Assembly: GCA_043767805.1 (NCBI GenBank)
Contig: JAYUGC010000154.1
Location: 1 to 24,274, forward strand
Source: Pseudomonadota bacterium
GTDB taxonomy: Bacteria; Bdellovibrionota; FAC87; UBA2466
Length of the DNA: 24,274 bases
Reading direction: 5' to 3'
Both the position numbers and the translations under genes were made by a program. This document shows, piece by piece, positions 6,351 through 20,574 of the stretch (position 1 is the stretch's first letter; every line of letters starts with the position of its first letter). The notes under the pieces were generated by a model. It ran no database searches. It saw only the letters and a list, made by a program, of their open reading frames with translations, and was not told the DNA's origin.

Positions 6351-6372
6351 CGAACCTTCCGGGAAGGTTTCG
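6351..6372 (+). terminator. Short hairpin after the + strand operon, a possible weak terminator
   Basis: AACCTTC-CGG-GAAGGTT (6353-6369), 16 nt after the stop at 6336. There is no real U-tract. Confidence 0.25.
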
Positions 6373-6578: not shown

Positions 6579-6679
6579 ACAACGCAGGCGTGAATATTAT
6601 TTTGAGCGGCTCAGATGTGCTCAATTGGATAGATATTAATAAAATCGCTGATTGAGCGAATTGGAGAGATAGCAGTTCG

Positions 6680-6707
6680 CGGCGGTGACCAAGTTGAGTC
6701 ACCGCCG
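6680..6707. terminator. Perfect 10-bp GC-rich hairpin downstream of the dioxygenase stop
   Basis: CGGCGGTGAC-CAAGTTGA-GTCACCGCCG, 28 nt past the minus-strand stop at 6736. No U-tract, so it may be an mRNA stability element or an atypical terminator. Confidence 0.45.
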
Positions 6708-6735
6708 GGACGCGCGCTGCGAGAAAATCCAACGG

Positions 6736-7803
6736 TCAACCAATATGAGCCGGCTGATAGAGACCGTTGAGAAGGTAATTTACGAAGAATTTGTTTTCAG
6801 AGGAAGAAAATCGGGAGAGCGCGGGGCGAGCTCTCTTTCCAAAAACAGGAAACGCGGTTGAAAATGGAGAGAGGTAATGTAGGAATAGAAGGTACCTAGA
6901 TTTTTCTCCTGGCCTACTTCCGAAGTGGTAGCAGTTACTCGTGTCAACGAAAGCCAAATCTCCTCTTTTTCCTGTGAATTCCACCCAATCTCTTCTTGGA
7001 ACAAATCTTAGGACCTCGGTATCATCAAGCCTTTTCTGATAACTAAGATGGCCACCGCGAGAACGAATTTCCTGCGTCTTATCAAGAGGCAGAAAAGTTA
7101 GTGGGGAGTTCAATTCAGTAACATCTCGAATTGGTATGAATATTTTTACTTGCTTAAACCCCTCTGGATCAACGTGGAACAATTGAGATTCGCCGATTTG
7201 TTTGTCATTGGGGGAAAAGAGAATTCTTAGCGACCCTAAAACAGGAAAAACGCCGAGATAGGCAGTAACTATTTCCAGTATAGATGGGTGGCTCGCCAAT
7301 TTGAAGATGGACGACTTATTACTAAGATAATGGGTGAAAGGGATGTGCTTTATTGGATTGTTAATTGTCTTGCCGACCTCTTTCAAGAACAAACCTCTTT
7401 CCTCTTTATTAAGACGTTCAAGCGAAGTAGGTTGGGCTAAGTACTGTTCATAGCCTTGAATTGCCTCATCACATTCCCTTAAAGCATTTTCGACCAGGTC
7501 GGGGACAGAAGACTTCGTAATGAGGTATCCGTTCGAGAGGCGTTTTCCGTGGATTTCCGTTCCTATTTCTGTGTCATGAAGCCTAAGGAATTTTCTCCTA
7601 ACGAGAAGGTTTTCCGCGAATTGCCGCGGCCGAGCAGCTCTAGACAAGCCTTCTAGAAATATTCGCAATTTTCTGGGTACGACTTTTCCTCTGGTGGCTC
7701 CGGAAAAATCTGGGATTTCTTTGACACTATTAAAGAGGAAAAACCGCATTTGTCGCCAAAATATTGCTCTTCGGCCTGAAACAGACAGCTCTTGCGAACT
7801 CAT
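6736..7803 (-). CDS. Fe(II)/2-oxoglutarate dioxygenase, PhyH-like
   Basis: HxD in SQLFHVD, then VKIFI..D...SPLTFLP, GKRGD..FVDT..CYH (distal His) and a downstream Arg. RBS GAAAGGAAG. Low GC. Confidence 0.8.
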   Translation of the reverse strand: MSSQELSVSGRRAIFWRQMRFFLFNSVKEIPDFSGATRGKVVPRKLRIFLEGLSRAARPRQFAENLLVRRKFLRLHDTEIGTEIHGKRLSNGYLITKSSVPDLVENALRECDEAIQGYEQYLAQPTSLERLNKEERGLFLKEVGKTINNPIKHIPFTHYLSNKSSIFKLASHPSILEIVTAYLGVFPVLGSLRILFSPNDKQIGESQLFHVDPEGFKQVKIFIPIRDVTELNSPLTFLPLDKTQEIRSRGGHLSYQKRLDDTEVLRFVPRRDWVEFTGKRGDLAFVDTSNCYHFGSRPGEKSRYLLFLHYLSPFSTAFPVFGKRARPALSRFSSSENKFFVNYLLNGLYQPAHIG

Positions 7804-8161
7804 TTCTTCCTTTCAAATATGCTGCGGAGTTTTGCCAGTATTCGCGGTGACGTCAACCTCGAGCTGGGTGAGCGCGCGCGACGCGTCCAGAAGGGCATGG
7901 CCCATACAAAATGCGACATGCTTACGACGACCGGCAATAGAGCCGGCGACGTAAGCTTCAAGGCTTTGCTCAACGATCCGACGAAATATCCTTGCCGCCG
8001 GTCTGACGTCATACATTACTGGAAAAAGGATTCGTTCACCCAGTTTCTCCGACTGAGTTCGGATACAAGAACAAACGTTATGGCGGACCTTTTGCTTTCA
8101 CCAGAATCTCTGAAATCAAAAAGAAACAATTGCTCATGCTGCAACTCTGACTGCCGTTCGT

Positions 8162-9658
8162 TTAGCTAGTTGACGCCAGCCGACTGGAGCCGGCGGTTAC
8201 CGCAACACCGCGGCTCAAGGCTTTGGGAACGGCGGCGGCAACCTCCTCGGCCGGCATTCCTTCCCCCAATAGACCGATGGCCAAACTCTGGACTTCGCCG
8301 GCGGAACGAGACAAGCCGTGAGGGCGCACGAAGCTCGTAACGAAGCGCTGGCGATTCGCCTGCTTCGGATCCTTGCCCGCGATGACCTGGCTGATTCTCG
8401 CAAGGCTATCGGGCACCCCTTTTTCGACGTACAGCACGTCGGCATTGAGCAGATGCTGAAAATGATTTGCCTTGTCCTGAGTCGCCTCGTATTGGCTCAC
8501 CGCCAGCGCAATGGACGGGCTATCGACGATAACAGCCTCTAGCATCGCTGAAGTATTGATACCTATCGTAAGCGCGGCCTGGCTCAAAGAGAGATAGAGG
8601 TCGCGCACGGATTCGACGCTCTCGGGCACTCCCAGCTGAAACTCGAAAGGCGGCTTCGGCCAAAGGAACACATTGGGCTCTTTTAGCCCGAGGTAAGCTT
8701 CGAAATTGGCCGGATGAGGACGAGCCAATATCTGCAGACGATTGAGCTTCGGATCGTCACTGGCCGCCAAAGCCCGAGCCAGATCCCGGATGAGCCAGGT
8801 TTCGTCGGGCGCGATATTCTTGGAAGAGCCCAAATACGTGAGGAAGGGACGCGTCTCGTCCATGCCGATGCGCTGGCAATAGGCGACCAACTCTTCTTTC
8901 GGGACACAAGCCTGCGAAAACCATTTGTCGAAAAAGGGAGAGCCCGAATTGAGGCAACGGCTAGGTGAAATCCCATGGATCCGGATCGCCTCGTCGGCAT
9001 GGGCCTGATTCCACGCAAGCACGAGGCTCGGTTTTACGTGCATCAAACCCTTCGTGGTCAGGTTGTCCCAGCTCAGCACCGGCACGGCGGTGGGAATTCC
9101 CATGGCCTTGGCGGCCTTCACGTACTCGACCTCTTCCGAGAAGCGCATGTCGACTGGGGAAGCAACGACGACGTCCGGCGAAAGCTTCTTGAGAAACTGA
9201 ACGATTTTGGGATCGGCCGGAACGAAGGACTCCACCGCGCGCACACCCAAGTCGAACAGCCGGCTCCCAATGATCTGCCGAAGCAATGCGCCGACCCGGC
9301 GGCGAGCAAGGCGCGTTTGCATGGGTTTCGAAAGGTAGCTGCGCCACCGATTCAAATAGAAAGCAGACTGCTCTTTCCGGCGCAGATAGCTGGAGTAAGA
9401 CCGGAGCTCTCTCAAAGGAAATAGGAACTTGCGGTAGCCGTCTTTTCTCAATACCGCCCACTGAAACGGGGCGACCCCGCGCTTTGCAATCCAGGCGTTC
9501 ACATGTTCGGTGGAGCGCTCGCGGCTCCAACGGGGATCGAAAACCAAAGTCAGCTCGCAGCCGCGGTCCACCAGACCGTCGAGAGTCGTCACGTGGTACG
9601 GGAAATGCGCCAAAGAGCGCATTACGTAAATCACTCGCACCTTTTTTTCCTGCGCCAT
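8162..9658 (-). CDS. GT-B-like 'SWDNLTTKG' protein, putative CMP-ulosonate transferase (paralog 1)
   Basis: Motifs SWDNLTTKG, GSPFFDKW, RPHP, GINTSAMLEA. The ATG at 9658 is preferred over the TTG at 9673 because GGGAG precedes it. Confidence 0.7.
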   Translation of the reverse strand: MAQEKKVRVIYVMRSLAHFPYHVTTLDGLVDRGCELTLVFDPRWSRERSTEHVNAWIAKRGVAPFQWAVLRKDGYRKFLFPLRELRSYSSYLRRKEQSAFYLNRWRSYLSKPMQTRLARRRVGALLRQIIGSRLFDLGVRAVESFVPADPKIVQFLKKLSPDVVVASPVDMRFSEEVEYVKAAKAMGIPTAVPVLSWDNLTTKGLMHVKPSLVLAWNQAHADEAIRIHGISPSRCLNSGSPFFDKWFSQACVPKEELVAYCQRIGMDETRPFLTYLGSSKNIAPDETWLIRDLARALAASDDPKLNRLQILARPHPANFEAYLGLKEPNVFLWPKPPFEFQLGVPESVESVRDLYLSLSQAALTIGINTSAMLEAVIVDSPSIALAVSQYEATQDKANHFQHLLNADVLYVEKGVPDSLARISQVIAGKDPKQANRQRFVTSFVRPHGLSRSAGEVQSLAIGLLGEGMPAEEVAAAVPKALSRGVAVTAGSSRLASTS

Positions 9659-9691
9659 ACTCAAATCTCCCAATCGCGAAACCGAAACAGC

Positions 9692-11131
9692 CTACACCGG
9701 GACCCGCTCAGGCTCCAAGCCTCGAAGCTTCGTCTGCGGGGCCTCACTCAAGCCAACCAAAAGCTCGGTCAGAGCCGATGCCGCGGTGGCTCCGGCGGAC
9801 ACTTTCAGGCCCTGAGGCCGGACCAGACGGAGGACCAGTTCCAGACGGGCGCCGGCCTTGGTATCGCCCGCTCCTTGAAAATGGCGCTCTAACCAGCAAA
9901 CGGCTGCTTTCGGCCCGTCCACGATTTCCAGAGCGTCCGACTTGAGCAACTCCTGAAAGTGCTGGGCGTCGGCTTGCGTGCCCCGGCGGCTTTCCTGAAG
10001 CCAGCATAAGCACGGGTGATCCAACGCCACCGCGTCCATCATTCCAGTCGTGTTGATCCCGAGCGTGGTTTCGCTGAAGATCACGCTCGCCACGAAATCC
10101 GCGCGGCTCGACGCCGAGTCGGGAAGCACGCCTTCCCGCGGCCATACGGCGACGCCCACGCGACTTAGCCCCTGAAAGGCAGCCCCGTTGGCGGGATGAG
10201 GACGAACTAAAATCTGCAGCTCCCTTACGCGCGCCTCGGCGCTGGTGGAAAAAGCGAGGGCGAGCGCTTCGACACTCGGTTTTCCCGAGGGCTCCACCGC
10301 GGGCGAGGAGCCGAGATAAAGGAGATAGGGCCGCGCGGGATCCAACCCCACGTGCGCGCAGAAGGCATTTCGGTCGAAAGCGGAGCGGTCGATCTCCCAC
10401 CACTTGTCGAAAAACGGAGAGCCCGTGACTCGAACGCGAGCTTCACTAATCCCGTGAAGCTCCACGGCCTGACGGCGGTGCTCCTCGTTCCAGACCAGCA
10501 CGCGGTCGGCGTACGGCGGAAGCAGACCCTTCGTCGATAGATTGTCCCAGCTATGCACGGCGACCGCGTTCGCAATCCCAAGCTTGCGGGCTCCCTTCAC
10601 GTACTCGAGCTCTTCCGACTGAGCGTGGTTCGTCGGCGAAGCGACGACGAGAGAAGGCTGAAGACGTTTCAGATGTTCCACGGCGCGGGAATCGGCCGGC
10701 AGAAGCTGCTCGAGCCACTGCAGAAACGCATCCACCCCGGGCACTCGTAGCGCAAAGTCCACGGGAAACCACCGTGCGAGACGGCGGGACCAGGGCATCA
10801 GGTTCCCCCGCCACCGCTCCCGGTAATAAGACGATTGGCCACGCCGGCGAAGGTAAGAGCCGTAACTTCGGAGCTCTCGCAGACCGACCGTAAAAGCGGC
10901 GAGCCTGTTCCAGAGCCTTCCCGCCACCCATTCGATCGTCACCCGTCCCCCTGTCGACAGGATCAGCTCGCGGCAGGCGAGGTCGTTCACGTCCTTGGGA
11001 TCGGTGGAAGGAATCAGCACCGTGACCTGATACCCCTCGTCGACGAGCGCGCGAATGGTGGAAGCCTGGTAGGAAACTACTTTGACCCCCTCCAGTGCGA
11101 ACAGAACGTGGCGGCCGGAAGTCGCTGTCAT
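9692..11131 (-). CDS. GT-B-like 'SWDNLSTKG' protein, putative CMP-ulosonate transferase (paralog 2)
   Basis: Motifs SWDNLSTKG, GSPFFDKW, RPHP, GINTTGMMDA. ATGA overlap with the neuA stop. Confidence 0.7.
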   Translation of the reverse strand: MTATSGRHVLFALEGVKVVSYQASTIRALVDEGYQVTVLIPSTDPKDVNDLACRELILSTGGRVTIEWVAGRLWNRLAAFTVGLRELRSYGSYLRRRGQSSYYRERWRGNLMPWSRRLARWFPVDFALRVPGVDAFLQWLEQLLPADSRAVEHLKRLQPSLVVASPTNHAQSEELEYVKGARKLGIANAVAVHSWDNLSTKGLLPPYADRVLVWNEEHRRQAVELHGISEARVRVTGSPFFDKWWEIDRSAFDRNAFCAHVGLDPARPYLLYLGSSPAVEPSGKPSVEALALAFSTSAEARVRELQILVRPHPANGAAFQGLSRVGVAVWPREGVLPDSASSRADFVASVIFSETTLGINTTGMMDAVALDHPCLCWLQESRRGTQADAQHFQELLKSDALEIVDGPKAAVCWLERHFQGAGDTKAGARLELVLRLVRPQGLKVSAGATAASALTELLVGLSEAPQTKLRGLEPERVPV

Positions 11132-11859
11132 CCGTTCCTGTCCCGGAGGAGAGTTTCGGCGAGGACGAAGTCGAGAGGCAGATTGATGTCTACCGACTCC
11201 TCTTCGCTCATCGGGAACGCGAGCACGTTTTTTCCGATGGTCGTCTTGGAACGATAGATGACGCTCGGCCGGGTGATGTAGATCGAGGCGTTCTGAATCC
11301 AGATCTCAGGCAGCTGCTGATACGCGAGCGTGTGCTTCTGCGAGCCGACGCCGCCGACGTAAGGATGGGCAAGCTTGCCCCTCACGGTCCACATTTTGTA
11401 CGGGTGCTCAGCGCACTTGCGAATGGATCGGAGCGACTCGGACTTCGGATTGGCGAGCATCTCGCGGATCGCGCGGTCGATGGACGCGCTCTTTCTGAAA
11501 GGCGTCGTCGGGTAGAGGTTCACGATGAGATCGGCCTCGTACCCTTCATTCTCTTTCAGCCAGTCGAGCGCGTGCCGGTGGAACTCGTACTCGGTGGAGC
11601 TGGAGCCGGCGAGATCCTTCGGACGCAGAAAAGGGACGTCCGCGCCGTATTTTCTCGCCGCTTCGGCAATGGCCGGAGCGTCGGTGGAGACCACCACACG
11701 GGTCACGAGCCTAGACTTAAGCGCGGCCTCAATCGTGTACGCGATGAGGGGCTTGCCGCCCAGATCCCGGATGTTTTTGTTCTTCACGCGCTTGGAGCCC
11801 GCACGCGCGGGAATGAGCGCGAGAACTTCGGGCCGCCGGGATGTGCGTGCGCGCGCCAT
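11128..11859 (-). CDS. neuA: Acylneuraminate/ulosonate cytidylyltransferase (CMP-NulO synthetase)
   Basis: Motifs ALIPARAGSKRVKNKN, GKPLIAYTI, VVSTD, PFLRP, PTTPFR, QNASIY, SVDIN...DF. Confidence 0.93.
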   Translation of the reverse strand: MARARTSRRPEVLALIPARAGSKRVKNKNIRDLGGKPLIAYTIEAALKSRLVTRVVVSTDAPAIAEAARKYGADVPFLRPKDLAGSSSTEYEFHRHALDWLKENEGYEADLIVNLYPTTPFRKSASIDRAIREMLANPKSESLRSIRKCAEHPYKMWTVRGKLAHPYVGGVGSQKHTLAYQQLPEIWIQNASIYITRPSVIYRSKTTIGKNVLAFPMSEEESVDINLPLDFVLAETLLRDRNG

Positions 11860-11862
11860 GGA

Positions 11863-13779
11863 TTATCTGGTCTCGGCGATACGGCCCGCGAGCGTGCGGC
11901 CGTCGAGCTTGTGGGCGCTAAGCGCTTCCCAAGGCGTACCGCAGGCCGGGAAGCCTTCGACGCCGAACTTTTGGAAGCGGATGTTTTTCAGCAGATCCTT
12001 CTCGTTCAGAAAAGCGAGGAGCAAATCGCCCAAGCCTCCCGTGGGAGAGTGATCGTCGACCACGTAAAGGTGCTTGCAGCCCGCGAGCTCGGATTTCAGC
12101 CAGTCGAGGTCGAAGCGGTTCAGCCAAGGCATGTTGACGACCTTCACGCTCAGCTTCTTCTGATCTTTCAGAATTTCCTGAGCGAGCAACGCTTCGTTCA
12201 GCATCACGGGCCCATAGGCAAAAAGTACGGTGTCTTCACCCGGGGTGAGCGCCACGCCCCGACCCGGGGATACGCGGTAGCCCGACGGGAGCGGGATGAG
12301 CCGCGGGGACGGACCAATGTTTACGCGCATCATCACGGAATGCTTGCTCTCCAAGACCGCCCAATGCGTCAGCTGACGAAGCTCTTCGCCGCTCGACCCT
12401 TGCACGATGGTCATGTCCGGAAACGCGGAGAAGAGAGAAATGTCGCGGATGGCCTGATGAGATTTTCCCGGACCGGCGGGAATAAGCCCGGCGTAGTGAC
12501 AGGAGAAAATCATCTTATTGCGCTCGGTGAGCGCGTTGTAGATCTGCTCATTAGCGCGTGCCGCGAGGAAGTTCGCAAACGAGTGCATGATGGGCACGAA
12601 ACCCTGGAGCGCGAGACCGCTTCCCATGGAAACCATGTCCTGCTCGGCAATTCCCATTTCGAAAAAACGCTTCGGGTACTTGTCCTCGAACTTGCGAAGG
12701 CGGCAATCAAGAGACAGATCGGCGTCGAGCACGACGAAATCCTTGTCCTTCTCCGCGAGCTCCATGAGCGCGTCGCCGTAAGCGTCGCACAGGAACTCTC
12801 CGCTCATCTTCGCCACTGGCCGCGCTTCGACCGCGGGCTCTTTGCGCGAAGGCGTGCCGAGGCCGAGACGTTTCCACTCGGACTGAACGCCTTCCCAAAG
12901 CTCGTCGTAAGCGCGGGTGTAGGACGCGTCATCGGGCGCGCCGGAGTGCCACTTGTAGAAACCATTGTTCGCCGGAAGCGCCGTCGGGTGTTCCATGAAG
13001 GAAATGCCCCGGCCTTTGATAGTGTCGGCGATGACGAACTTCGGCTTGTCGTCGAACTTGCGCAACGTCGTGAAGGCTTTTTCGAGCTGGTCGTAGTCAT
13101 GGCCGTCGATGCGAACCACTTCCCAGCCGAAGGACGCGATCTTCTTGTCCAGATCGCCTAAAGAATTGATGCGATCGATGTAGCGATCGCTCTGCAGCTT
13201 ATTGTGATCCATCACCACGGTGACGTTGTGCTGCTTTTGCGAAACAGTGCTCTGGAGCGCTTCGAAATTCTCGCCTTCCTGAAACTCGCCGTCGCCCGTC
13301 ATCACGAAGACGCGGCCTTCCCAGCCGCGCATCTGCTTGGCGGTCGCCATGCCGCGGGCTTTCGAGATACCCATGCCAAGCGATCCGGTATTGGCTTCGA
13401 TGCCAGGGATCTTGGTATCGGGATGGCCATCGAGACCGCCCAAACGGCGCAGCGCCAAAAACTTTTCCTCGGGGATGAGGCCGAGCGAATAAAGGACCGC
13501 GTACTGCCCGGGAGCGTCGTGCCCCTTCGACGAGAAGTAGATATCGCGATCGGGGTGCTTGGGACCCTTCTCCTTCACGTTCAAGTGCCGGTAGTACATG
13601 TAAATGACGATATCCATCGCGCTTAAGGAAGAACCGAGGTGACCGCTTCCGGCGCGCTTTACTTCGAAAAGCGTATTGAGGCGGGCCATTTTGGCGATGA
13701 GCTCCAGCTGCTCTTTCCAGTTGAGCTTAGCCGCCGCGACTTTTTCGAATTCCTCTTTCGGAATGAATTTCATTTCCAT
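11863..13779 (-). CDS. Single-chain transketolase-like ThDP-dependent enzyme with a non-canonical acceptor site
   Basis: Motifs SGHLGSSLS, SKGH, GHP, TGSLGMG, ThDP motif GDGEFQEG...N, TIKGRG, FEMGIAEQ. RBS GGGAG. Confidence 0.9.
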   Translation of the reverse strand: MEMKFIPKEEFEKVAAAKLNWKEQLELIAKMARLNTLFEVKRAGSGHLGSSLSAMDIVIYMYYRHLNVKEKGPKHPDRDIYFSSKGHDAPGQYAVLYSLGLIPEEKFLALRRLGGLDGHPDTKIPGIEANTGSLGMGISKARGMATAKQMRGWEGRVFVMTGDGEFQEGENFEALQSTVSQKQHNVTVVMDHNKLQSDRYIDRINSLGDLDKKIASFGWEVVRIDGHDYDQLEKAFTTLRKFDDKPKFVIADTIKGRGISFMEHPTALPANNGFYKWHSGAPDDASYTRAYDELWEGVQSEWKRLGLGTPSRKEPAVEARPVAKMSGEFLCDAYGDALMELAEKDKDFVVLDADLSLDCRLRKFEDKYPKRFFEMGIAEQDMVSMGSGLALQGFVPIMHSFANFLAARANEQIYNALTERNKMIFSCHYAGLIPAGPGKSHQAIRDISLFSAFPDMTIVQGSSGEELRQLTHWAVLESKHSVMMRVNIGPSPRLIPLPSGYRVSPGRGVALTPGEDTVLFAYGPVMLNEALLAQEILKDQKKLSVKVVNMPWLNRFDLDWLKSELAGCKHLYVVDDHSPTGGLGDLLLAFLNEKDLLKNIRFQKFGVEGFPACGTPWEALSAHKLDGRTLAGRIAETR

Positions 13780-13807
13780 AGCGTTCTCCCGTTCAAATCC
13801 GCCGCCC

Positions 13808-15277
13808 TCAAACTCCCGAGGGATCGACGACGTGGTAAATCACTTTTACGTTTGAATAGACGTCCAAAGCTTCCGGACCCGGCTCGCGGCCGCCGTTGCC
13901 GGACGCTTTGACTCCGCCAAAAGGCATGTGAGGCTCGCTGCCGTGCGTGCCGCCGTTGACGGTCGCCACACCAACCTGCACCCGCCGCGTGAACTCGAGC
14001 GCGCGGTTGTAATTGCGGGTGTGGATCGAGGCGGTGAGGCCGTAATCACAATCGTTCACCAAGGCGATGGCTTCCTCGAAGCCCTTTACCCGATAGAGAT
14101 TGGTGATAGGGCCGAACAATTCCTTGCGCGAGACTTCGTCGTCCGCCGAGAGGCCTTCGATCACGGTCGGTGCCAAGTAGTAACCGCCCTTGTGGCTCGA
14201 GTCTTCGAGACGCGCGCCACCCGAGGCGTACTTCGCGCCGCGTGATTTGGCGCCCGATAGCGCGGTCACCATATTGTCTAACTGGCGCTGATTGATCACT
14301 GGGCCGAGATCGTCCGCGTCAGTGCAACCAACTTTAAGCTGCGCGACTTTCTCTACCAGACGCTTACGGAACTCGTCGTAAACGGCATCGAAAACCACGA
14401 GACGGCTTGAGGCCGCGCACCGCTGGCCCGCATTGCTGAAAGAGGAAAGAAGCGCCCACTTCACGGCGTTATCGAGATCGGCGTCATCGCAAACGACGAG
14501 CGCGTTCTTGCCGCCCAGCTCGAGACAAACTTTCGCCAGACGCTCGCCGCCTACTTTCGCGATTTGGCGGCCGACATTCGTCGAGCCAGTGAAGCTAAGG
14601 AGAGAAATTGCGGGGTTCTCGACGAGCGCCGCGCCGACTTCGTGCCCATACCCGTGCAGCACGGTAAGCGCGCCGTCCGGCAAACCGACTTTGGTCAGAA
14701 TGCGGGACAAGATCCACGCGGTGAAAGGCGTGTCTTCCGAAGGCTTCAAGATGGCTGCGTTGCCGCAAACGAGAGCGGGAAAGACTTTCCAGGCGACGTT
14801 GGCAATCGGCGTATTGGCCGCCGTGATGAGCGCGCAAATGCCGACGGGCTCGCGAACGACACTCGGATACCGATTGGGCTGCGCGCTGACCGTCGTGCGG
14901 CCAAAGAAACGCTGACCTTCCCCGGCCATGAAAAGCGCGAGCTGAATGGCTGCTCCGGTTTCACCAAGCGCATCCTTCACGGACTTTCCGGTCTCCAAAG
15001 CGACGAGCTCCGCGATTTCCTGGCGGCGGGCTTTCATCTCGTAAGCGGCATCGAAAAGAATTTCCGCGCGGCGCACGGGCGTAAAGGCCGACCAGGTTTT
15101 GAATCCAGCTTTCGCGACCTGAATGGCCCGCTCGACGTCCGAGCGATCGGAGCGCGTCACTTCCGCAATGGCCTCGCCCGAGTGCGGGCTATATTTCGTG
15201 AGAAAACGCCCGGAAGCGGAAGGCGCTTCCTCGGAACCGAATTGATTCAAAAGCCGGCTGGGCCGATTTTCCTGCAT
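13808..15277 (-). CDS. NAD(P)+-dependent aldehyde dehydrogenase
   Basis: Motifs KPSE, FTGS, LELGGKN (catalytic Glu), NAGQRC (catalytic Cys), ELFGP, PFGGVKASG. RBS GAGGAG. Confidence 0.93.
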   Translation of the reverse strand: MQENRPSRLLNQFGSEEAPSASGRFLTKYSPHSGEAIAEVTRSDRSDVERAIQVAKAGFKTWSAFTPVRRAEILFDAAYEMKARRQEIAELVALETGKSVKDALGETGAAIQLALFMAGEGQRFFGRTTVSAQPNRYPSVVREPVGICALITAANTPIANVAWKVFPALVCGNAAILKPSEDTPFTAWILSRILTKVGLPDGALTVLHGYGHEVGAALVENPAISLLSFTGSTNVGRQIAKVGGERLAKVCLELGGKNALVVCDDADLDNAVKWALLSSFSNAGQRCAASSRLVVFDAVYDEFRKRLVEKVAQLKVGCTDADDLGPVINQRQLDNMVTALSGAKSRGAKYASGGARLEDSSHKGGYYLAPTVIEGLSADDEVSRKELFGPITNLYRVKGFEEAIALVNDCDYGLTASIHTRNYNRALEFTRRVQVGVATVNGGTHGSEPHMPFGGVKASGNGGREPGPEALDVYSNVKVIYHVVDPSGV

Positions 15278-15291
15278 CGCAAAGTCTCCTC

Positions 15292-16110
15292 TTACCAGGC
15301 GGTCCAGCCGCCATCGATCATGAGATTAGCGCCCGTCACGTAGGACGAAGCGCGAGACGCCAGAAAAATAACGGCGCCCGTAAGTTCTTCGGAACGGGCC
15401 ATGCGGCCCATGGGAACACGCTTGGTATATTCCGCGAGAAAGGCCTCGTCCTGCCCGTTGAAAACCCCCGCGGGAGTTAGCGTGTTCACTCGCACGCCCT
15501 TACGTCCCCAATAGGTCGCCAGATAGCGGGTGAGATTCAAAATGCCGGACTTCGTCACCGAGTAGGCGACCGGCTTGTACCAGTCCTCGCCTTTTCGGCG
15601 GCGGTACTCGTAAATATCTTGGTTGGGCGAGACCACTCCGTAGATGGAGCTCACGTTGATGATGCTGCCCGAGCCTCGCGCGGCCATCGCGCCGCCCACC
15701 ACCTGGCAAGGCACGAGGGTGCCCTTCAAGTTCACGTGGACGACCCGGTCCCACGAAGCTTCCGGATAGGTTTCGAAAGGGCCGTTCTCGGCTGCGGGCG
15801 CATCCGGGGGAGAATCGATGGCGGCCGAGTTGACCAGGACATCGGGCGTTCCCGCCCAGGCTTGAACCGCGGCAAGGCTGGCTTCGACGCTCGCGCGGTT
15901 GGTGATATCTACGCGAAAGAGCTTTAAACGGTCGGCTTCCACGAGAGAAGACCAGTTTGGGTGAGTCGGAGAGCGTGGTTCTGACGCGACGTCCCATGAG
16001 GCGATGCGGGCGCCGAAATCCCCGAGAACCGAGCAGAAGTGCTGGCCCAAAAGGCCGCACGCCCCGGTCACCACAGCCACCTTACCGTCGAGTGAAAACA
16101 AGTCCTTCAT
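15292..16110 (-). CDS. Short-chain dehydrogenase/reductase (classical SDR)
   Basis: Motifs TGACGLLG, VNSAA, SSIYG, catalytic YSVTK, VRVN, IDGGWTAW. Confidence 0.92.
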   Translation of the reverse strand: MKDLFSLDGKVAVVTGACGLLGQHFCSVLGDFGARIASWDVASEPRSPTHPNWSSLVEADRLKLFRVDITNRASVEASLAAVQAWAGTPDVLVNSAAIDSPPDAPAAENGPFETYPEASWDRVVHVNLKGTLVPCQVVGGAMAARGSGSIINVSSIYGVVSPNQDIYEYRRRKGEDWYKPVAYSVTKSGILNLTRYLATYWGRKGVRVNTLTPAGVFNGQDEAFLAEYTKRVPMGRMARSEELTGAVIFLASRASSYVTGANLMIDGGWTAW

Positions 16111-16155
16111 GAAGCTTCGGAATCCGTTTCTAGGTATCGCGGGCGACCCTGAACT

Positions 16156-16704
16156 TCAAACCTTTTCCCAGCCAAAGAAGTGGGCCCAAGGCCCCTCGGA
16201 AACGGGCAGATCGTGGCGGGCGCAGTAGACGGTTTCGCAAAATTCCCGAAGCGCTCCCCGGCCTCCCGCGTGCTTCAAGATCCAGAACGCCGACGCCCGG
16301 GCTTCAGGGAAGGCATCACTGACCACTACCGGCAGACCGACGCGGCGGAGACAGGGAACGTCGTTTACATCATTACCGACGAAGGCGACTTCCGATGGTT
16401 TGAGGCCGCGGTCAGTGAGGAACTTTTCCAAAAGGCTCCCCTTGTCCTCGCACCCGGAAATGCACTCCAACGCGAGCTTTCGCGCGCGGGCTTGGACGAC
16501 CGGATTGACCTCGGTGGAAAGAATCATCGCGGAAAGCCCACAGGCTTTCAGCAAGCGCATTCCATAACCGTCACTGCGGTTACAAACCACGCTCTCTATG
16601 CCGTCTTGATTGACGATCACTTCGTTGGTCGTGAAGACGCCGTCGAAGTCGAATATGACGAGCTTCAGCGGGCGTATCCGGGACTCGAGGCCAGCGCCAC
16701 TCAT
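16156..16704 (-). CDS. KdsC/YrbI-family HAD phosphatase (ulosonate 8/9-phosphate phosphatase)
   Basis: Motifs FDFDGVFT, DG, ILST, K, GNDVND, GGRGALRE. ATGA overlap with the neuB stop. Confidence 0.9.
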   Translation of the reverse strand: MSGAGLESRIRPLKLVIFDFDGVFTTNEVIVNQDGIESVVCNRSDGYGMRLLKACGLSAMILSTEVNPVVQARARKLALECISGCEDKGSLLEKFLTDRGLKPSEVAFVGNDVNDVPCLRRVGLPVVVSDAFPEARASAFWILKHAGGRGALREFCETVYCARHDLPVSEGPWAHFFGWEKV

Positions 16705-17768
16705 TGATTGCGCAAGCTATCGAGAGTCGGAGACTCGTCCGAGCCCATATCGCGCGTCAGCGTTTGGCCGAGCACTTCGTCGAAGTGATACGGCGCAAGC
16801 CCGTCGCCAGGCGATTTGATGGTGATGTCTTCGGCCGAGATTACATGACCGGCTTTCAAGGGCCGGTTGAAAACGATCTTCTTACCCATCTTGATGAGGG
16901 GCTCGACTTCGCTCGCGTGCGTCGCCTTGATGTGGCTACCGAGGGCGAGACGCGTCCGTTTCAAATCGCGGATCATCTTCTTGATGCCCACAGGCTCGAG
17001 AGAGAACGCATGATCCGTGCCCTTCCAGGTGCGGTTCAGCGTGAAGTGCTTTTCGATGACGCGAGCGCCGAGCACGTAGCTCGCCACCGCCATCGCGATG
17101 CCGCTGTCGTGGGAAGAGAGACCGATGACCACATCCGGGAACGCGGTACGGAACGTCGAGACGACGTTCAGATCGAGCTCCTCGAACTTCGCCGGGTAAC
17201 CAGCCGTGCACTGCAAAATCGTCAGCTGCGTGTTGATCGGCATGATGGTGTCGTACGCGCGTTGCACGTCCGCCATGGTGCCGCCGCCGGTGCTGACCAC
17301 CATCGGCTTGCCGAGCTTCGCCACGTGCCGAAGCAGCGGGAGGCTTTTTAAATCGCCGGAGGCGATTTTGTACGCCGGCATATCGAGATCTGCCAAGAAG
17401 TCGGCGCTCGGAATGTCGAAAGCCGTCGAGAAAAACGTGATGCCGAGCTCTTTCGCGTACTCTTTGAGCTCGACGTACTCTTCCTTGCCGAACTCGAGCG
17501 CTTCGCGGTGCGCGCCGTAGGTGGCGCCGTAAGCGTTCTCGGAATTGTACGGCTTGTCGTACATCGCTTGAGTGAAGAGTGCCTTGTTGTCGCGCTTTTG
17601 AAGTTTCACGGAGTCGCATCCGCTTTCCTTCGCGACCCGGAACATCTCTTTGCAGGTGTCGACATTACCGCCGTGATTGTGACCAATCTCCGCGATGACG
17701 TAAGCGTCCGTACTGTCGTCAATCACGCGGCCGTCGATGATGAGCTGTCTCTTCAAAAGCTGTCCCAT
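16701..17768 (-). CDS. neuB: NeuB-family PEP-dependent ulosonate(-phosphate) synthase with C-terminal SAF/AFP-like domain
   Basis: Motifs IAEIGHNHGG, VKLQ, KIASGD, STG, LQCTAGYP, SSH, IEKHFTL, DH..SLEP, K.PGDG. RBS GGAGG. Confidence 0.93.
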   Translation of the reverse strand: MGQLLKRQLIIDGRVIDDSTDAYVIAEIGHNHGGNVDTCKEMFRVAKESGCDSVKLQKRDNKALFTQAMYDKPYNSENAYGATYGAHREALEFGKEEYVELKEYAKELGITFFSTAFDIPSADFLADLDMPAYKIASGDLKSLPLLRHVAKLGKPMVVSTGGGTMADVQRAYDTIMPINTQLTILQCTAGYPAKFEELDLNVVSTFRTAFPDVVIGLSSHDSGIAMAVASYVLGARVIEKHFTLNRTWKGTDHAFSLEPVGIKKMIRDLKRTRLALGSHIKATHASEVEPLIKMGKKIVFNRPLKAGHVISAEDITIKSPGDGLAPYHFDEVLGQTLTRDMGSDESPTLDSLRNQ

Positions 17769-17882
17769 ACTTGAAAAATCCTCCGAGAACTTCTCTAAAC
17801 GAGCCGAGAAGTCTGCCTAAAAACGCTTACACCACCTCGCCCAGAACCAAAGAGGAAGCTGCTTGAAGATCAACGGGGCGTA

Positions 17883-17915
17883 TGATTATTTGAACCGTAG
17901 CTGATCAAATAATCA
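17883..17915. promoter_or_regulatory. Perfect 11-bp inverted repeat in the divergent promoter region, candidate operator
   Basis: TGATTATTTGA-N11-TCAAATAATCA. Confidence 0.5.
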
Positions 17916-17957
17916 CGGGCAATATGAAACTAAGTGCGGAGCGGCCACGGGCCTTGG

Positions 17958-19466
17958 ATGTTTGACGTTTCGATTCTTTCGCCGAAAACCGCCGCGCCGC
18001 GAATCGTAGTTTTTCTCCGATCGATCAGTCACTTTTCGTACATTCAGTCGACTTTGGAAGCGTTACTCCACCATGGCGTATCTCTTCAGCTCGTTTTCGA
18101 CGCCGAAGCTAGCGCGGGCCACTCGACGGAATTCGTAAAGACTTGGGAAAGGCAGCACGGGCTTTCCCATTTCATTTACGCTAAGCGTCATAAAATGGGT
18201 TGGCGTAGGTACTTGCACGTCATCCGAGAGCTCGCTAGTTACGGAAGCTTTTTACGGCGGCGGGAACAGTCCGAGTTCTTTCTCCGGAGATGGCGAGGCT
18301 ACTTACCCAACCGGGTTCGCTTCTACCTTCAGCGCCGCACCGTAGGAAAAATTTTAAACGTTCTCATCGGGTCCCTTCCCTTTACTTGGATGGCACGGGC
18401 AATCGAACTCTTGGCTCCCGCGGATCCTGACGCCATGCTCCTACTCCGGCAATTACAGCCCGATGCTATTGTCGCGACTCCGGCCAACACCCGATTCTCG
18501 GCGGAAGTGGAATTTCTCAAAGCCGCTAAACGGCTGCACATTCCCTCGGCGGTCCCCGTTTACAGCTGGGATAATTTGACGACCAAAGGCCTCTTTCACT
18601 GCCGGCCGGATCTTTTGCTCGCGTGGAATGAAACGCACGCCGAGGAAGCCGTGCGGATTCACGGCATACCCCGGCATCGAGTCGCCATCACGGGAGCGCC
18701 TTTTTTCGATAAGTGGTTCACCGAGCCCGAACAAGGCCCCGAAAGCCGGCAACACTACTGCCGAAAAGTGGGCTTGGATCCCGCGCGTCCGTTTCTCACT
18801 TATCTCGGCTCCTCCTCCAACGTCGCGTCCGATGAGAGCTGGCTCGTAAAAGAGCTTGCGGAGACGCTGCTCAATCATGAGGATCCGGCTATCCGCCAAT
18901 ATCAAGTCTTGGTAAGACCGCACCCGGCCAATTTCAAAGGGCATTTGACTCCCCTTCCGCCAAATGCGGCGGTTTGGCCTCGCCCGCCTTTCGATTTCGA
19001 GCATGGCGTACCGGAAACCTCCGGGGCCCTTCGAGATCAAAGCCTCGCTCTGCAACTATCCGTCGCCACTATCGGCATCAATACCTCGGCAATGCTCGAA
19101 TCCATCATCGAGGACAAGCCTTCCTTTGCTTTTCTGTCGGATCTCTACCGTCCCACCCAGCAGGATACGACTCATTTTCAGACCCTGTCACGAACCGGAA
19201 CCCTTTATCCGATTCACACCCGCGACGAACTTGTGCGCGGTTTGCAACGGCTGGCACACGGTGAAGATCCCGCGCGAGGCGCAAGACGAGCCTTCGTCTT
19301 GAACTTCATGCGACCGCACGGACTTGCTGCTCCCGCAGCCACCCTGCAAGCTAGCGCCATCTTAGCGCTGAGCCGGGGCGTACCGGCACACATCATCAGC
19401 TCTCAGTTTTCCCCAAAGCGGTATGAAAGCTGGAAAAGGCCTCAGCCGATTTTTTCGGGAATGTAG
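17958..19466 (+). CDS. GT-B-like 'SWDNLTTKG' protein, putative CMP-ulosonate transferase (paralog 3)
   Basis: Motifs SWDNLTTKG, GAPFFDKW, RPHP, GINTSAMLES. Start uncertain (GTG 17934 or ATG 17958). Confidence 0.7.
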   Translation: MFDVSILSPKTAAPRIVVFLRSISHFSYIQSTLEALLHHGVSLQLVFDAEASAGHSTEFVKTWERQHGLSHFIYAKRHKMGWRRYLHVIRELASYGSFLRRREQSEFFLRRWRGYLPNRVRFYLQRRTVGKILNVLIGSLPFTWMARAIELLAPADPDAMLLLRQLQPDAIVATPANTRFSAEVEFLKAAKRLHIPSAVPVYSWDNLTTKGLFHCRPDLLLAWNETHAEEAVRIHGIPRHRVAITGAPFFDKWFTEPEQGPESRQHYCRKVGLDPARPFLTYLGSSSNVASDESWLVKELAETLLNHEDPAIRQYQVLVRPHPANFKGHLTPLPPNAAVWPRPPFDFEHGVPETSGALRDQSLALQLSVATIGINTSAMLESIIEDKPSFAFLSDLYRPTQQDTTHFQTLSRTGTLYPIHTRDELVRGLQRLAHGEDPARGARRAFVLNFMRPHGLAAPAATLQASAILALSRGVPAHIISSQFSPKRYESWKRPQPIFSGM

Positions 19467-20467
19467 GCTGATCCAAAGCGAGCCGGGGCGCGAAACAAAC
19501 TGTTGTCGCGCCGGGTAACGCGCTCGAAAAATCTTTCAAATTCCGTAGCTAGAGTTTCTAATGCAAAAGCTCCTCGCGTTTTTGCGAACACGGCCTTGAT
19601 ACGAGCGCGCTCCGCCGCATTCATGAGCTCTCCGAGCCCTTGTTCCAGTTCGGCCTCAGTCGAAAAAAACCGAACGCCCTCCGGCGCGGTCTCACGATAG
19701 GCATCGGCTTCCGAAGGCACTAGGCAAGGAACGCCGGCACCAATGAAGTTCGCCAATTTGACGTTAGACTTGTAACGACGGGCGAGGAAGCTATCGTGCT
19801 CACCGCCGCGAGCGGCAATCCCCAAGTCCATTTCCGCCAGATCCGGCGGATTGATTACGAAGGTGAGGCCGAACCGCTTGGCCAAAGTCTCGATGGCGCC
19901 TCGCCACGGTCCCAAAAATCGTTCGTCTCCCTCGTACGCCAAAGTGAGTGCCTTGGAGCGAGCGGGACGAGACAGAAGATCAGGGCGAAAATGATGATAG
20001 AGAACTTCGCCCGGCGCGACGTCTCTAAAATCCTCCCACATCGTGCGGTCGGGGTAGATCCAAGCACTCACCGGGAGCCCTCGCCACTTTTCCTCGAAAA
20101 GCCGGCGCGCCGAGGGCAAATCACCGTGGAGCAAACCGTCTTCGGGCTGCCGCCAGCCGTCGACGATATCGAGCACAACGGTTTTGCCCCCCGCTTTCAG
20201 GGCGTTCATCCGCTCCCGGTCGGGGTGCTTGATGTAACAGAAGACGTCGAAATCATCCCAGACCCGGGGAGAGGGCTCGGCAATCGCCTTCCAATTGGTG
20301 CGCGCGGAAGCTACCTGCACGCCGCGAATCTGCCACGACCCGCCCCGGTTCAGCCCACAAAAACAAACGCGTACAGAGGCCGCACGGGCAAAGGGAGCCT
20401 TCGCGGCGGCGCTATCCCGGCCGGCTAACCACCGCTGGTAAAAACGGTTTGAGGAAAAGAAGGGCAT
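19442..20467 (-). CDS. Hypothetical protein, likely a divergent GT-B (GT4-like) glycosyltransferase
   Basis: Motifs GSWQIRG, VVLDIVD, MDLGIA, KSNVKLANFIGAGVP (compare the GT4 pattern K..E..A.G.P). 25-nt convergent overlap with the neighbouring gene. Confidence 0.6.
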   Translation of the reverse strand: MPFFSSNRFYQRWLAGRDSAAAKAPFARAASVRVCFCGLNRGGSWQIRGVQVASARTNWKAIAEPSPRVWDDFDVFCYIKHPDRERMNALKAGGKTVVLDIVDGWRQPEDGLLHGDLPSARRLFEEKWRGLPVSAWIYPDRTMWEDFRDVAPGEVLYHHFRPDLLSRPARSKALTLAYEGDERFLGPWRGAIETLAKRFGLTFVINPPDLAEMDLGIAARGGEHDSFLARRYKSNVKLANFIGAGVPCLVPSEADAYRETAPEGVRFFSTEAELEQGLGELMNAAERARIKAVFAKTRGAFALETLATEFERFFERVTRRDNSLFRAPARFGSAYIPEKIG

Positions 20468-20574
20468 GAAAGTATCGTGTCGATGGGGACGGTAGCCTTG
20501 TCAAGGGCGCCCGGAGTCGGGGGTTGTCAAGCGGCCCCCGGTGCAAGAGGATGGGCGGCTAGGGGTCCAGTTTC

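Follow-up and report, generated by a model that had tools for sequence, protein, structure and literature searches.

An operon for a sialic acid-type sugar with three extra enzymes that may shorten an ulosonic acid and make it doubly acidic

What is a transketolase doing in an operon for a sialic acid-type sugar? The window (the whole stretch of DNA that was analyzed, 24,274 nucleotides) had been described in an initial annotation as carrying a tight operon, neuB-HAD-SDR-ALDH-transketolase-neuA. To our knowledge, the combination of a short-chain dehydrogenase (SDR), an aldehyde dehydrogenase (ALDH), and a thiamine diphosphate (ThDP) enzyme has not been described in any Neu, Leg, Pse, or Kdn pathway. 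Open reading frame checks and Pfam and NCBIfam profiles confirmed the six genes as real, along with their strand, families, and spacings (-4, 45, 14, 28, and 3 nt in gene order). Two further co-directional genes follow neuA, at -4 and 18 nt. The features are as follows.

17768-16701, minus strand: neuB (PF03102, 259 bits, plus SAF)
16704-16156, minus strand: HAD phosphatase (KdsC/YrbI subfamily TIGR01670, 100.2 bits, cut-off 106.95)
16110-15292, minus strand: SDR (adh_short_C2, 143 bits)
15277-13808, minus strand: ALDH (PF00171, 499 bits)
13779-11863, minus strand: transketolase-like protein (Transketolase_N, Transket_pyr, and Transketolase_C)
11859-11128, minus strand: neuA (CTP_transf_3, 102 bits)
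9692..11131, minus strand: paralogue 1 with a GT-B fold, 479 amino acids, overlapping neuA by 4 nt
8162..9673, minus strand: GT-B family paralogue 2, 503 amino acids, the last gene of the co-directional run
17934..19466, plus strand: GT-B family paralogue 3, 510 amino acids, divergent from neuB across a 165-nt spacer

Because the window is an entire 24.3-kb contig, the gene context is cut at both ends. Among its 22 larger open reading frames, Pfam and NCBIfam found no Epimerase_2 (NeuC), 4,6-dehydratase, DegT aminotransferase, or acyltransferase, in agreement with the initial annotation. Seven window open reading frames have no significant family (one of them has a sub-threshold GT2 match only), so the precursor enzymes are "not found" rather than proven absent.

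The outer genes resemble a known route. NeuB (355 amino acids, with NeuB and SAF domains, the latter at 39 bits) belongs to the family of PEP-condensing ulosonate synthases. It scores 300.9 against TIGR03569 (cut-off 399.65), lies below the NeuB and PseI equivalog cut-offs, and has SpsE, NeuB, and PseI as its best PDB matches. The arginine that binds the N-acetyl group in Neisseria meningitidis NeuB (R314) is found in 0 of 11 cassette NeuBs, and the KxQ motif is followed by an invariant R59. Close homologues of the window's NeuB bear the JGI label "sialic acid synthase," which we take to be the label of the animal-type enzyme. NeuA (243 amino acids) is a cytidylyltransferase of the NeuA/PseF type (PseF TIGR03584, 143.6, cut-off 205.7; KdsB models, at most 63 bits) and is a putative CMP-ulosonate synthetase.

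The HAD protein (182 amino acids, C0-type, KdsC/YrbI family) is presumed from its family to be an ulosonate-phosphate phosphatase. It scores 101 bits against KdsC NF007019, and its PDB matches are 3mmz (121 bits), KdsC (about 78-80 bits), and a Bacteroides thetaiotaomicron Kdn-9-P phosphatase chain, 3e81 (73 bits). However, it is not specific to the cassette. Three close loci (L001, L002, and L085) lack it, and L070 has a HAD protein of a different type. Among 20 relatives, 12 have KdsC-like genes, and only one of them also has the transketolase-like gene. Also, its own genome gave no second KdsC-family match. For these reasons, it may serve Kdo synthesis as well.

As far as the available text of the source describes it, the CMP-Kdn pathway of B. 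thetaiotaomicron and Prymnesium parvum consists of Kdn-9-P synthase, Kdn-9-P phosphatase, and CMP-Kdn synthetase (PMC6200933). It thus has a NeuB-family synthase, a KdsC-family HAD, a CTP_transf_3 cytidylyltransferase, no NeuC-type enzymes, and the same logic of phosphorylation and dephosphorylation as the cassette. It lacks the three strictly co-conserved extras, and the cassette's HAD scores too low for NF058599, the model for the Kdn-9-P phosphatase of B. thetaiotaomicron (87.6, cut-off 180). The vertebrate Neu5Ac-9-phosphate route (synthase, phosphatase, and CMP-synthetase), again from the available text, shares the phosphorylated aldose and separate phosphatase step that we propose here, but not the trio (PMC6200933). 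No supply of ManNAc-6-P was recognizable near the cassette; the host genome has one strong Epimerase_2 match, isolated and away from the cassette. The framing of the locus as a phosphorylated route therefore stands at the family level, as synthase, phosphatase, and CMP-transferase all lie beside the SDR/ALDH/ThDP trio.

Do the three extra genes belong to this pathway, or are they housekeeping genes that merely sit inside a sialic acid-like operon? All three are from very large families with many housekeeping members, and the genome contains eight or more further ALDH genes. However, it also has its own split transketolase and a DXS-like gene at other sites, and the cassette transketolases form a clade apart from 30 sampled ordinary transketolases. 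We found 15 loci with a transketolase of at least 40% identity, and 11 of these have enough flanking sequence to examine. SDR-ALDH adjoins the transketolase in all 11. NeuB lies inside the locus in 10 of the 11 and just outside the fetched stretch in the other (L004), and NeuA and HAD are also beside the transketolase in most of them. Among the remaining loci, three short contigs show whichever parts fit, and one shows the transketolase alone. The loci span Bdellovibrionota, Ignavibacteria, Anaerolineae, and Acidobacteria, with a distant version in Actinomycetota (an Aquiluna locus with NeuB-SDR-ALDH-NeuA-TK-HAD, transketolase 33% identical). The cassette transketolase is rare in the phylum (1 of 30 relatives and 2 of 300 genomes), yet it keeps the same neighbors in several other phyla. 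Since the same gene set surrounds these relatives in unrelated phyla, the arrangement is far beyond chance, and we disfavor the lack of any joint function as extremely improbable. Conservation of the six-gene cassette, a check proposed in the initial annotation, is thus borne out at 40% identity or more, except that the HAD is not everywhere. No ALDH-TK or SDR-TK fusion was seen among the longer proteins searched, which is weak evidence in either direction. A literature search found no paper on the cassette or its product.

The transketolase-like protein is full length (638 amino acids, three transketolase domains) and aligns to human transketolase (4kxu) with 213 bits. It shares the three-domain fold family of canonical transketolases (human 4kxu/3ooy and the Carboxydothermus split enzyme 6yak/6yaj), as well as the residues for ThDP, Mg2+, and catalysis (His and Glu). 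Equivalents of human H37, H77, H110, H258, E366, D155, and N185 are kept in 126 of 126 close homologues. Unlike the canonical enzymes, it scores below the NCBIfam transketolase cut-off (NF004559, 387.6 versus 488; DXS, 179 versus 466), and its substrate site is altered. Among the close homologues, the phosphate binders R318, S345, and R474 are replaced by A/V/S/C, by D (126 of 126), and by I (121 of 126), and the sugar-hydroxyl binder D424 is replaced by P (125 of 126). Both phosphate arginines and the aspartate are absent from 15 of 15 cassette transketolases. In contrast, ordinary relatives (about 33% identity, n = 71) keep R318 in 66, R474 in 67, and D424 in 69. Because these four positions are replaced, the substrate is probably not an ordinary sugar phosphate, and so we place this step after the phosphatase.

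This bears on whether the trio builds an unusual aldose (phosphate) for NeuB, with phosphatase and NeuA then acting as in the Kdn route. The aldose has to come from somewhere, as no NeuC, dehydratase, or aminotransferase was found in the window; transketolases normally use the free sugar phosphates of central metabolism; and the cassette NeuB departs from characterized NeuB, PseI, and SpsE at substrate-side positions. However, the KdsC-type phosphatase and the type of NeuB imply a phosphorylated aldose, which is at odds with a transketolase phosphate site lost in all 15 cassette copies. Furthermore, transketolases yield ketoses while NeuB requires an aldehyde, and the cassette has no isomerase. 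Since a non-acylating ALDH consumes aldehydes irreversibly, it would be a competitor of NeuB and not a supplier. Man-6-P is on hand without extra genes. We consider precursor building, which the initial annotation had listed, to be unlikely.

The SDR (272 amino acids) is of the classical NAD+ type; 13 of 13 cassette members have the glycine motif, the aspartate that ends beta-2, and the Ser-Tyr-Lys residues. Its best NCBIfam match is PRK09186 (166.8, cut-off 255), a type that we take to include Campylobacter PtmA. Next come gluconate 5-dehydrogenase, D-mannonate oxidoreductase, and KduD, and the PDB matches include gluconate 5-dehydrogenase and the sorbitol, galactitol, and mannitol dehydrogenases. 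Gluconate 5-dehydrogenase, mannonate oxidoreductase, and these polyol dehydrogenases oxidize the hydroxyl adjoining a terminal CH2OH. Such sugar-acid and polyol dehydrogenases are the nearest named relatives of the cassette SDR, although it matches them with only 105-150 bits, under every cut-off. We propose the same chemistry here: oxidation of the penultimate hydroxyl of the ulosonate tail to a ketone.

The ALDH (489 amino acids, non-acylating) reaches no NCBIfam equivalog. Its best match there is alpha-ketoglutaric semialdehyde dehydrogenase (395, cut-off 770), and its best PDB match is about 300 bits. All 14 cassette ALDHs have the catalytic cysteine and glutamate, and in each of the 14 an arginine directly precedes the cysteine, versus 2 of the 12 ALDH entries from its own genome. 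In GapN and methylmalonate-semialdehyde dehydrogenase, an arginine at this position binds the phosphate or carboxylate of short anionic aldehydes; a literature search for this anion-binding role found no confirmation.

With these pieces, the pathway may run as follows. NeuB would join PEP to a hexose 6-phosphate, by default Man-6-P but possibly ManNAc-6-P, to give a nonulosonate 9-phosphate, and the KdsC-type HAD would remove the phosphate; both steps follow family homology. The NAD+-dependent SDR would then oxidize the penultimate hydroxyl at C8, which would turn the tail into HOCH2-CO-CHOH-, the donor motif of transketolases. The transketolase-like enzyme, as the proposed ketol-cleaving step, would cut the C7-C8 bond and retain the two-carbon unit on ThDP. 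The proposed role of the ALDH is to oxidize the new C7 aldehyde to a carboxylate, which would give a 3-deoxy-hept-2-ulosaric acid, C7H10O8. Judging by their families, NeuA would come last, making the CMP-sugar, and the adjacent GT-B paralogues would transfer it to a surface glycan. It is equally possible that the three tailoring steps act on the CMP-sugar, after NeuA. Beyond the level of protein family, all of this is what we infer from sequence.

We put the probability that the product of the six genes is a chain-shortened dicarboxylic ulosonic acid in CMP-activated form at roughly 0.45. Removal of two carbons, which the initial annotation had offered, is the best fit to the transketolase sites, the SDR's relatives, and the ALDH's arginine, although the product is unproven, and it is the only linear scheme we found that would give all three extra enzymes a role. 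From the name of Kdn we derive that C7 and C6 of 8-keto-Kdn would be D-threo, like C3 and C4 of fructose and xylulose, as transketolase donors need. C6 bears the ring oxygen and has no free hydroxyl, which would fit the change from Asp to Pro.

Several points weigh against two-carbon removal. Transketolase requires an acceptor for the two-carbon unit; the usual ones (GAP, R5P, and E4P) fit badly without a phosphate site, and the cassette encodes no alternative. An aspartate is invariant where the phosphate site used to be; its charge would repel a carboxylate, and the substrate could be an amino or neutral one. Also, the gene order (SDR-ALDH-TK) differs from the proposed order of action.

If the enzyme instead added a glycolaldehyde unit (for example, from hydroxypyruvate) to an ulosonate aldehyde, the product would be a C11 or branched acid. 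The transketolase keeps all ketol-transfer residues, including H119 and H441 (presumably for recognition of the donor's hydroxymethyl group, by engineering work on bacterial transketolases), and the lost phosphate site agrees with a small unphosphorylated donor. But the ALDH, strictly kept beside the SDR in every flanked locus, would be left without a role in such an addition and would consume the acceptor aldehyde. We recognized no enzyme that forms hydroxypyruvate, and the closest relatives of the SDR oxidize secondary alcohols, not primary ones. This idea, also from the initial annotation, seems very unlikely to us.

Alternatively, the trio (perhaps with the HAD) might make or use a small acid such as glycolate, glycerate, or hydroxypyruvate, either as a substituent of an ordinary Kdn-type sugar or to feed another sugar of the same glycan. 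The arginine by the ALDH's catalytic cysteine would suit small anionic aldehydes, and D-glyceraldehyde dehydrogenase is among the ALDH's many mid-scoring relatives. Furthermore, a Micromonospora relative of the transketolase shares the site changes and forms a fusion with an NRPS condensation domain; its cargo is likely a two-carbon unit. However, the cassette is not accompanied by any transferase that would form an acyl, ketal, or ether linkage. Its five-gene core is constant while the neighboring transferases and methyltransferases vary between loci, which argues for action on the ulosonate itself, and we rate such a side supply as quite unlikely.

Two-carbon removal from an ulosonate has partial parallels. 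In Shewanella, Kdo8N is formed by oxidizing the tail of Kdo to an aldehyde and then transaminating it, using a metal-dependent alcohol dehydrogenase and an aminotransferase, with no C-C cleavage and no second carboxylate. There, too, the tail of an ulosonic acid is tailored after the synthase via an aldehyde, but the enzyme families differ, and our scheme adds the cleavage and the second carboxylate. The predicted product is in the same class (seven-carbon 3-deoxy-2-ulosaric diacids) as Dha, the 3-deoxy-D-lyxo-hept-2-ulosaric acid of plant rhamnogalacturonan II and prasinophyte walls. The available text of the sources gives both the biosynthetic route and the activated form of Dha as unknown (PMC3355719, PMC12168206). 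By our derivation, cutting Kdn at C7-C8 would give the L-arabino isomer, so the term "Dha-like" in the initial annotation should not be taken to mean Dha.

The 479-amino-acid protein beside neuA is the probable transferase for the CMP-sugar. Its AlphaFold model (pLDDT 84.4, pTM 0.84) has GT-B matches at Z 18-24, and its homologues come after neuA in L001, L002, and L085. It is 36-40% identical to its two paralogues, which are 47% identical to each other. The 479- and 510-amino-acid proteins have a weak BFO_1060 glycosyltransferase match, and no Pfam family was found for the 503-amino-acid protein. Overall, the product of the operon is probably an undescribed, doubly acidic surface sugar.

The cassette lies on a complete contig of 24,274 bp (JAYUGC010000154.1), from a source genome of 4.5 Mb in 204 contigs. 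Eight genes run in the same direction on the minus strand, with spacings (in order) of -4, 45, 14, 28, 3, -4, and 18 nt. The initial annotation had described the first six of these as an operon of neuB, a HAD phosphatase, an SDR, an ALDH, a transketolase-like gene (TK), and neuA, and this description was accurate: the ORF coordinates bear out the spacings, and Pfam and NCBIfam confirm all six families. A third relative of the two genes after neuA is divergent.

Cassette genes and the three paralogues next to them
17768-16701, minus strand: neuB
16704-16156, minus strand: HAD phosphatase
16110-15292, minus strand: SDR
15277-13808, minus strand: ALDH
13779-11863, minus strand: full-length transketolase-like gene
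11859-11128, minus strand: neuA
9692-11131, minus strand: 479-aa protein, overlaps neuA
8162-9673, minus strand: 503-aa protein, neighbour of the 479-aa protein; these two are last in the co-directional run
17934-19466, plus strand: 510-aa protein, divergent

The remaining 14 larger ORFs encode GT2 and GT8 glycosyltransferases, five methyltransferases (one of FkbM type), the third paralogue, and proteins without a family. The FkbM-type and four class-I methyltransferases, GT2, GT8, and several of the family-less ORFs form a glycan island at 237-6336 (plus strand) and 19442-24272. We saw no flippase, polymerase, or ABC exporter in the window, where the contig ends cut the context. A scan of positions 6300-18100 for promoter and terminator consensus sequences gave the same counts as shuffled sequences (4 versus 3.1 and 15 versus 15.1). 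No Rfam family matched, hence no TPP riboswitch, and no tRNA was found either. A low-GC stretch (46-52%, versus about 59% elsewhere) holds a 355-aa ORF (6736-7803, minus strand) that matches no family even at E 5. Its H-x-D ... H pattern resembles that of Fe(II)/2-oxoglutarate dioxygenases, and the protein may be another enzyme that tailors the sugar.

Among known systems, the CMP-Kdn pathway comes closest; the cassette differs from it by its co-conserved trio of SDR, ALDH, and TK. In the phosphorylated route of B. thetaiotaomicron, Prymnesium, and vertebrates, as outlined in excerpts of PMC6200933, PEP is condensed with a hexose 6-phosphate, the product is dephosphorylated, and CMP activation follows. 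The cassette's synthase matches PF03102 (259 bits) and has a SAF domain, and its metal- and PEP-side motifs are invariant among 11 cassette NeuBs. Its scores fall short of the equivalog cut-offs for both NeuB_NnaB (300.9 versus 399.65) and PseI (242.6 versus 340.25). In N. meningitidis NeuB, position 314 (located by alignment to the variant chain 4ipi) is an Arg that we take to be the binder of the N-acetyl group. None of the 11 cassette NeuBs has this Arg, and the Arg after the KxQ motif is invariant. In line with the initial annotation, Pfam and NCBIfam detected neither an epimerase of the NeuC type nor a dehydratase, DegT aminotransferase, or acyltransferase family among the window's larger ORFs. 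With no precursor enzymes found in the window, both synthase cut-offs unreached, and the Arg at position 314 absent, the cassette falls outside the bacterial Neu5Ac, legionaminic, and pseudaminic acid pathways. Close homologues of this NeuB are labeled "sialic acid synthase" at JGI, and the ESM Atlas returned generic NeuB clusters only. As for a supply of ManNAc-6-P, NanE has just a marginal match (27.2 bits) in the genome; the genome's one strong Epimerase_2 match is isolated, beside an inositol-monophosphatase-like gene.

NeuA is a cytidylyltransferase of the NeuA/PseF type (CTP_transf_3, 102 bits), and its best model is PseF (143.6 versus a cut-off of 205.7). The phosphatase belongs to the KdsC/YrbI C0 family (TIGR01670, 100.2 versus a cut-off of 106.95) and scores beneath all equivalog cut-offs. 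By NCBIfam models and by comparison with the PDB chains of KdsC and Kdn-9-P phosphatase, it falls between KdsC and the B. thetaiotaomicron Kdn-9-P phosphatase. It is also the sole KdsC-family match in its marker-complete genome, which has KdsA-like and KdsB-like genes elsewhere. A KdsC-like gene is present in 12 of 20 relatives, and just one of those 12 has the cassette TK.

With the TK protein as query, we scanned one genome per prokaryote species and found six loci (54-69% identity), in Bdellovibrionaceae, Pseudobdellovibrionaceae, Ignavibacteria, two Anaerolineae, and Pyrinomonadaceae. A metagenome scan added nine loci (40-68% identity). Eleven of the 15 loci had adequate flanking sequence, and in every one of these the SDR and ALDH genes adjoin TK. 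NeuB lies within the locus in 10 of the 11 (in L004 it is just upstream of the retrieved stretch), and NeuA is likewise present in 10 of the 11 (L089 starts at SDR). The other four are three short contigs with ALDH and TK; ALDH, TK, and NeuA; or TK and NeuA, and a 4.3-kb contig with TK alone. Conservation of the cassette across genomes had been set beforehand as one check on the proposal, and it holds, as the trio stays with NeuB at all of these flanked loci apart from the one whose NeuB is just outside the stretch. That the trio has no joint function with the neuA and neuB genes is a reading that we consider very unlikely. The KdsC-like HAD is clustered with the other genes in the window and in L003, L004, L006, L083, L087, L088, L089, and L091, and it is not in the cluster at L001, L002, or L085. 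Because this phosphatase is the only KdsC-like gene in its genome, has similar genes in relatives that lack TK, and is missing from three close cassettes, it may be shared with Kdo synthesis.

In Aquiluna (Actinomycetota), the genes run NeuB-SDR-ALDH-NeuA-TK, the HAD that comes next is of another type, and the TK, ALDH, SDR, and NeuA proteins are only 30-35% identical to the window's. Flanking transferases and methyltransferases vary from locus to locus. In the window's own lineage few genomes carry the cassette TK; searches at E 1e-100 and 1e-150 found it in 1 of 30 relatives and in 2 of 300 genomes sampled from the phylum. Overall, the genes look like a mobile module in which five form a conserved core and a phosphatase is added to them, patchily distributed across at least five phyla. 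At the locus of the closest relative (L001), a KdsA-like gene (DAHP_synth_1; 13024-13908, minus strand) lies just downstream of the cassette on the opposite strand, together with a GT2 and a DegT aminotransferase. One metagenome contig (L091; 1019-3962 and 6310-12994) has NeuB and NeuA in two copies each, and one of its NeuA ORFs is a possible fusion of 605 aa; another ulosonate pathway, of a different kind, thus accompanies the cassette there.

The cassette's TK departs from the transketolase family in two of the family's defining features. The closest solved structures are human-type transketolases (213 bits), which score above DXS (about 110 bits). The protein did not reach the equivalog cut-offs for transketolase (NF004559, 387.6 versus 488; TIGR00232, 145.6 versus 682) or DXS (TIGR00204, 179.3 versus 465.95). 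We aligned its residues to human transketolase (4kxu, whose chain numbering we take to agree with the native human numbers), to 126 close homologues, and to 71 ordinary relatives at about 33% identity. The ThDP/Mg2+ and catalytic positions (human H37, H77, H110, D155, N185, H258, and E366) are invariant in the close group (126/126) and in the ordinary group. In transketolases, R318, S345, and R474 grip the phosphate of the substrate, and D424 senses the hydroxyl adjoining the reacting carbon. In the close group, R318 is replaced by A, V, S, or C, S345 by Asp (126/126), D424 by Pro (125/126), and R474 by Ile (121/126); the window's TK has C, D, P, and I at these positions. Ordinary relatives keep R318 (66/71), D424 (69/71), and R474 (67/71), and have S or A at position 345. 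Both Arg and the Asp are absent from all 15 cassette-linked TKs, including the distant one from Aquiluna, and Ser345 is replaced in 14 (one retains Ser).

Since the cofactor and catalytic residues are kept and the sugar-phosphate site is replaced, we read the cassette TK as a ketol-transfer enzyme whose catalytic machinery is intact and whose substrate channel has been rebuilt. We rejected the view that it is a housekeeping transketolase: besides the replaced phosphate and hydroxyl site, the TKs of the cassettes and their close homologues group in a clade apart from 30 randomly sampled ordinary transketolases (FastTree local support 0.715, midpoint root), and the same genome encodes a separate, split transketolase (contig C7), as well as a DXS-like gene (contig C100). 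Two further observations concern TK relatives. A Micromonospora record (P0241, 1168 aa) has a 41%-identical relative fused to an NRPS condensation domain; it has lost the phosphate-binding Arg residues and has the Asp-to-Pro change, as in the cassette TK, and secondary metabolism, too, seems to have drawn on this clade. In a small subgroup (L046, L057, L075, and L080), the first catalytic His is Trp and the first phosphate-binding Arg is Gly, and no cassette gene is linked to these.

The SDR is of the classical type, with a TGxxxGxG motif, a Ser-Tyr-Lys triad, and an Asp ending beta-2 in 13 of 13 cassette copies. This Asp points to a preference for NAD+ and so to an oxidative role. Among named proteins, the SDR is most closely related to gluconate 5-dehydrogenase, D-mannonate oxidoreductase, KduD, and the dehydrogenases of sorbitol, galactitol, and mannitol, which convert the hydroxyl beside a terminal CH2OH to a ketone. 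The ALDH (PF00171, 499 bits) belongs to the non-acylating superfamily and attained no equivalog cut-off in NCBIfam; its best match among PDB sequences (E 1e-60) scores about 300 bits. Each of the 14 cassette copies has the catalytic Cys and the general-base Glu, and 13 of the 14 have the Glu of the NAD(P)-binding K-x-x-E. All 14 also have an Arg immediately before the catalytic Cys, and among 12 ALDH rows of the genome only the cassette's and one other have this Arg-Cys pair. In GapN and methylmalonate-semialdehyde dehydrogenase, the equivalent residue (Arg301) presumably holds short anionic aldehydes by their phosphate or carboxylate. A literature search for this role gave no confirmation, and we treat an anionic-aldehyde binder in the cassette ALDH as a lead.

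The extra trio argues for an end product other than Kdn or Neu5Ac. In the scheme that we favor, the core enzymes would condense PEP with a hexose 6-phosphate and remove the phosphate, with CMP activation last. The SDR would oxidize the penultimate hydroxyl (C8 of the nonulosonate) to give a HOCH2-CO-CHOH- tail, TK would cleave the C7-C8 bond, and the ALDH would oxidize the C7 aldehyde to yield 3-deoxy-hept-2-ulosaric acid. Either the free acid or the CMP-sugar could be the substrate of the trio; the TK step is placed after the phosphatase because TK has lost its phosphate site. Oxidation, removal of two carbons, and aldehyde oxidation to a diacid like Dha (3-deoxy-D-lyxo-hept-2-ulosaric acid) had been the first proposal of the initial annotation. 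We prefer it because it is the only linear scheme we found that employs all of SDR, TK, and ALDH, and from these sequences we put its probability at about 45%.

Stereochemistry derived from the systematic name of Kdn bears on the scheme. C7 and C6 of 8-keto-Kdn are D-threo, like C3 and C4 of fructose, as transketolase donors require. Kdn C6 bears the ring oxygen and has no free hydroxyl, which would fit the Asp-to-Pro change in TK. The product from Kdn would have the L-arabino configuration and not the D-lyxo configuration of Dha. Several points count against tail cleavage. The two-carbon unit requires an acceptor, and the cassette names none. The Asp that is invariant at TK's former phosphate site would disfavor a nearby carboxylate. 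The HAD, missing from three close cassettes, may also serve Kdo synthesis. Lastly, there were no informative gene fusions among longer proteins, where none of four TK relatives was fused to ALDH, SDR, NeuA, or NeuB (weak evidence).

Alternatively, the trio might build a precursor ahead of NeuB, TK might add two carbons rather than remove them, or the trio might supply a small acid; we consider each of these less probable than tail cleavage. We dropped a further idea, in which ALDH, SDR, and HAD would convert GAP to hydroxypyruvate for use as the TK donor: NeuB would then have no aldehyde substrate, and the route would repeat central metabolism.

The 479-, 503-, and 510-aa proteins are paralogues (36-47% identity), and their homologues come after neuA in L001, L002, and L085. 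A model predicted from six sequences has a GT-B fold (pLDDT 84.4, pTM 0.84). Its top structural matches are UDP-GlcNAc 2-epimerases (Z 20-24); next come MGD1, MurG, and PimA, which are glycosyltransferases, and the Kdo transferase WaaA (Z 18-21). This likeness of the modeled fold (Z 24) may reflect an epimerase-related activity. The family is outside Pfam Epimerase_2, two of the paralogues have no Pfam match even at E 5, and hhalign against the genome's own Epimerase_2 protein gave a probability of 0.12%. The 479-aa protein has no match among PDB sequences at E 1, and in the ESM Atlas it falls in "hypothetical" clusters, one with 12% Glyphos_transf. Invariant stretches of the family include S-W-D-N-L-T-x-K-G and R-P-H-P, the latter recalling what we take to be the "HP" motif of bacterial CMP-sugar transferases. 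These proteins are probably the transferases for the new sugar.

We found no paper on the cassette in the full-text literature; subscription-only articles and supplements lie outside that search. To our knowledge, the described routes to Neu, Leg, Pse, Kdn, and Kdo all proceed without a ThDP enzyme. The matches listed for "ulosaric" concern plant or algal Dha, and Dha biosynthesis in plants is still given as unknown in passages of PMC3355719 and PMC12168206. The boldest reading, which we hold slightly less likely than the tail-cleavage scheme itself, is that the cassette encodes the first enzymatic pathway to a 2-ulosaric (dicarboxylic) sugar: TK, specialized away from sugar phosphates, clips the two-carbon tail off an oxidized sugar of the sialic-acid type, ALDH caps the stump with a second carboxylate, and a CMP-activated seven-carbon diacid is displayed on bacteria of many phyla, with a transketolase for the first time tailoring a finished glycan building block. 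If true, it would be a chemical precedent for the origin of Dha-type sugars.

On microbial surfaces, nonulosonic and related acids occupy the outermost tips, where they affect recognition by phages, predators, and hosts. The conservation of the cassette across phyla and the rebuilt substrate site of TK together suggest a sugar that is absent from current glycan catalogues. Pathway predictors that read any neuB/neuA pair as "sialic acid" would miss or misassign it. If the product is an ulosaric diacid, the cassette would give this sugar class, which includes Dha, its first genes, and a new type of reaction for the transketolase family, perhaps useful in biocatalysis, would follow.
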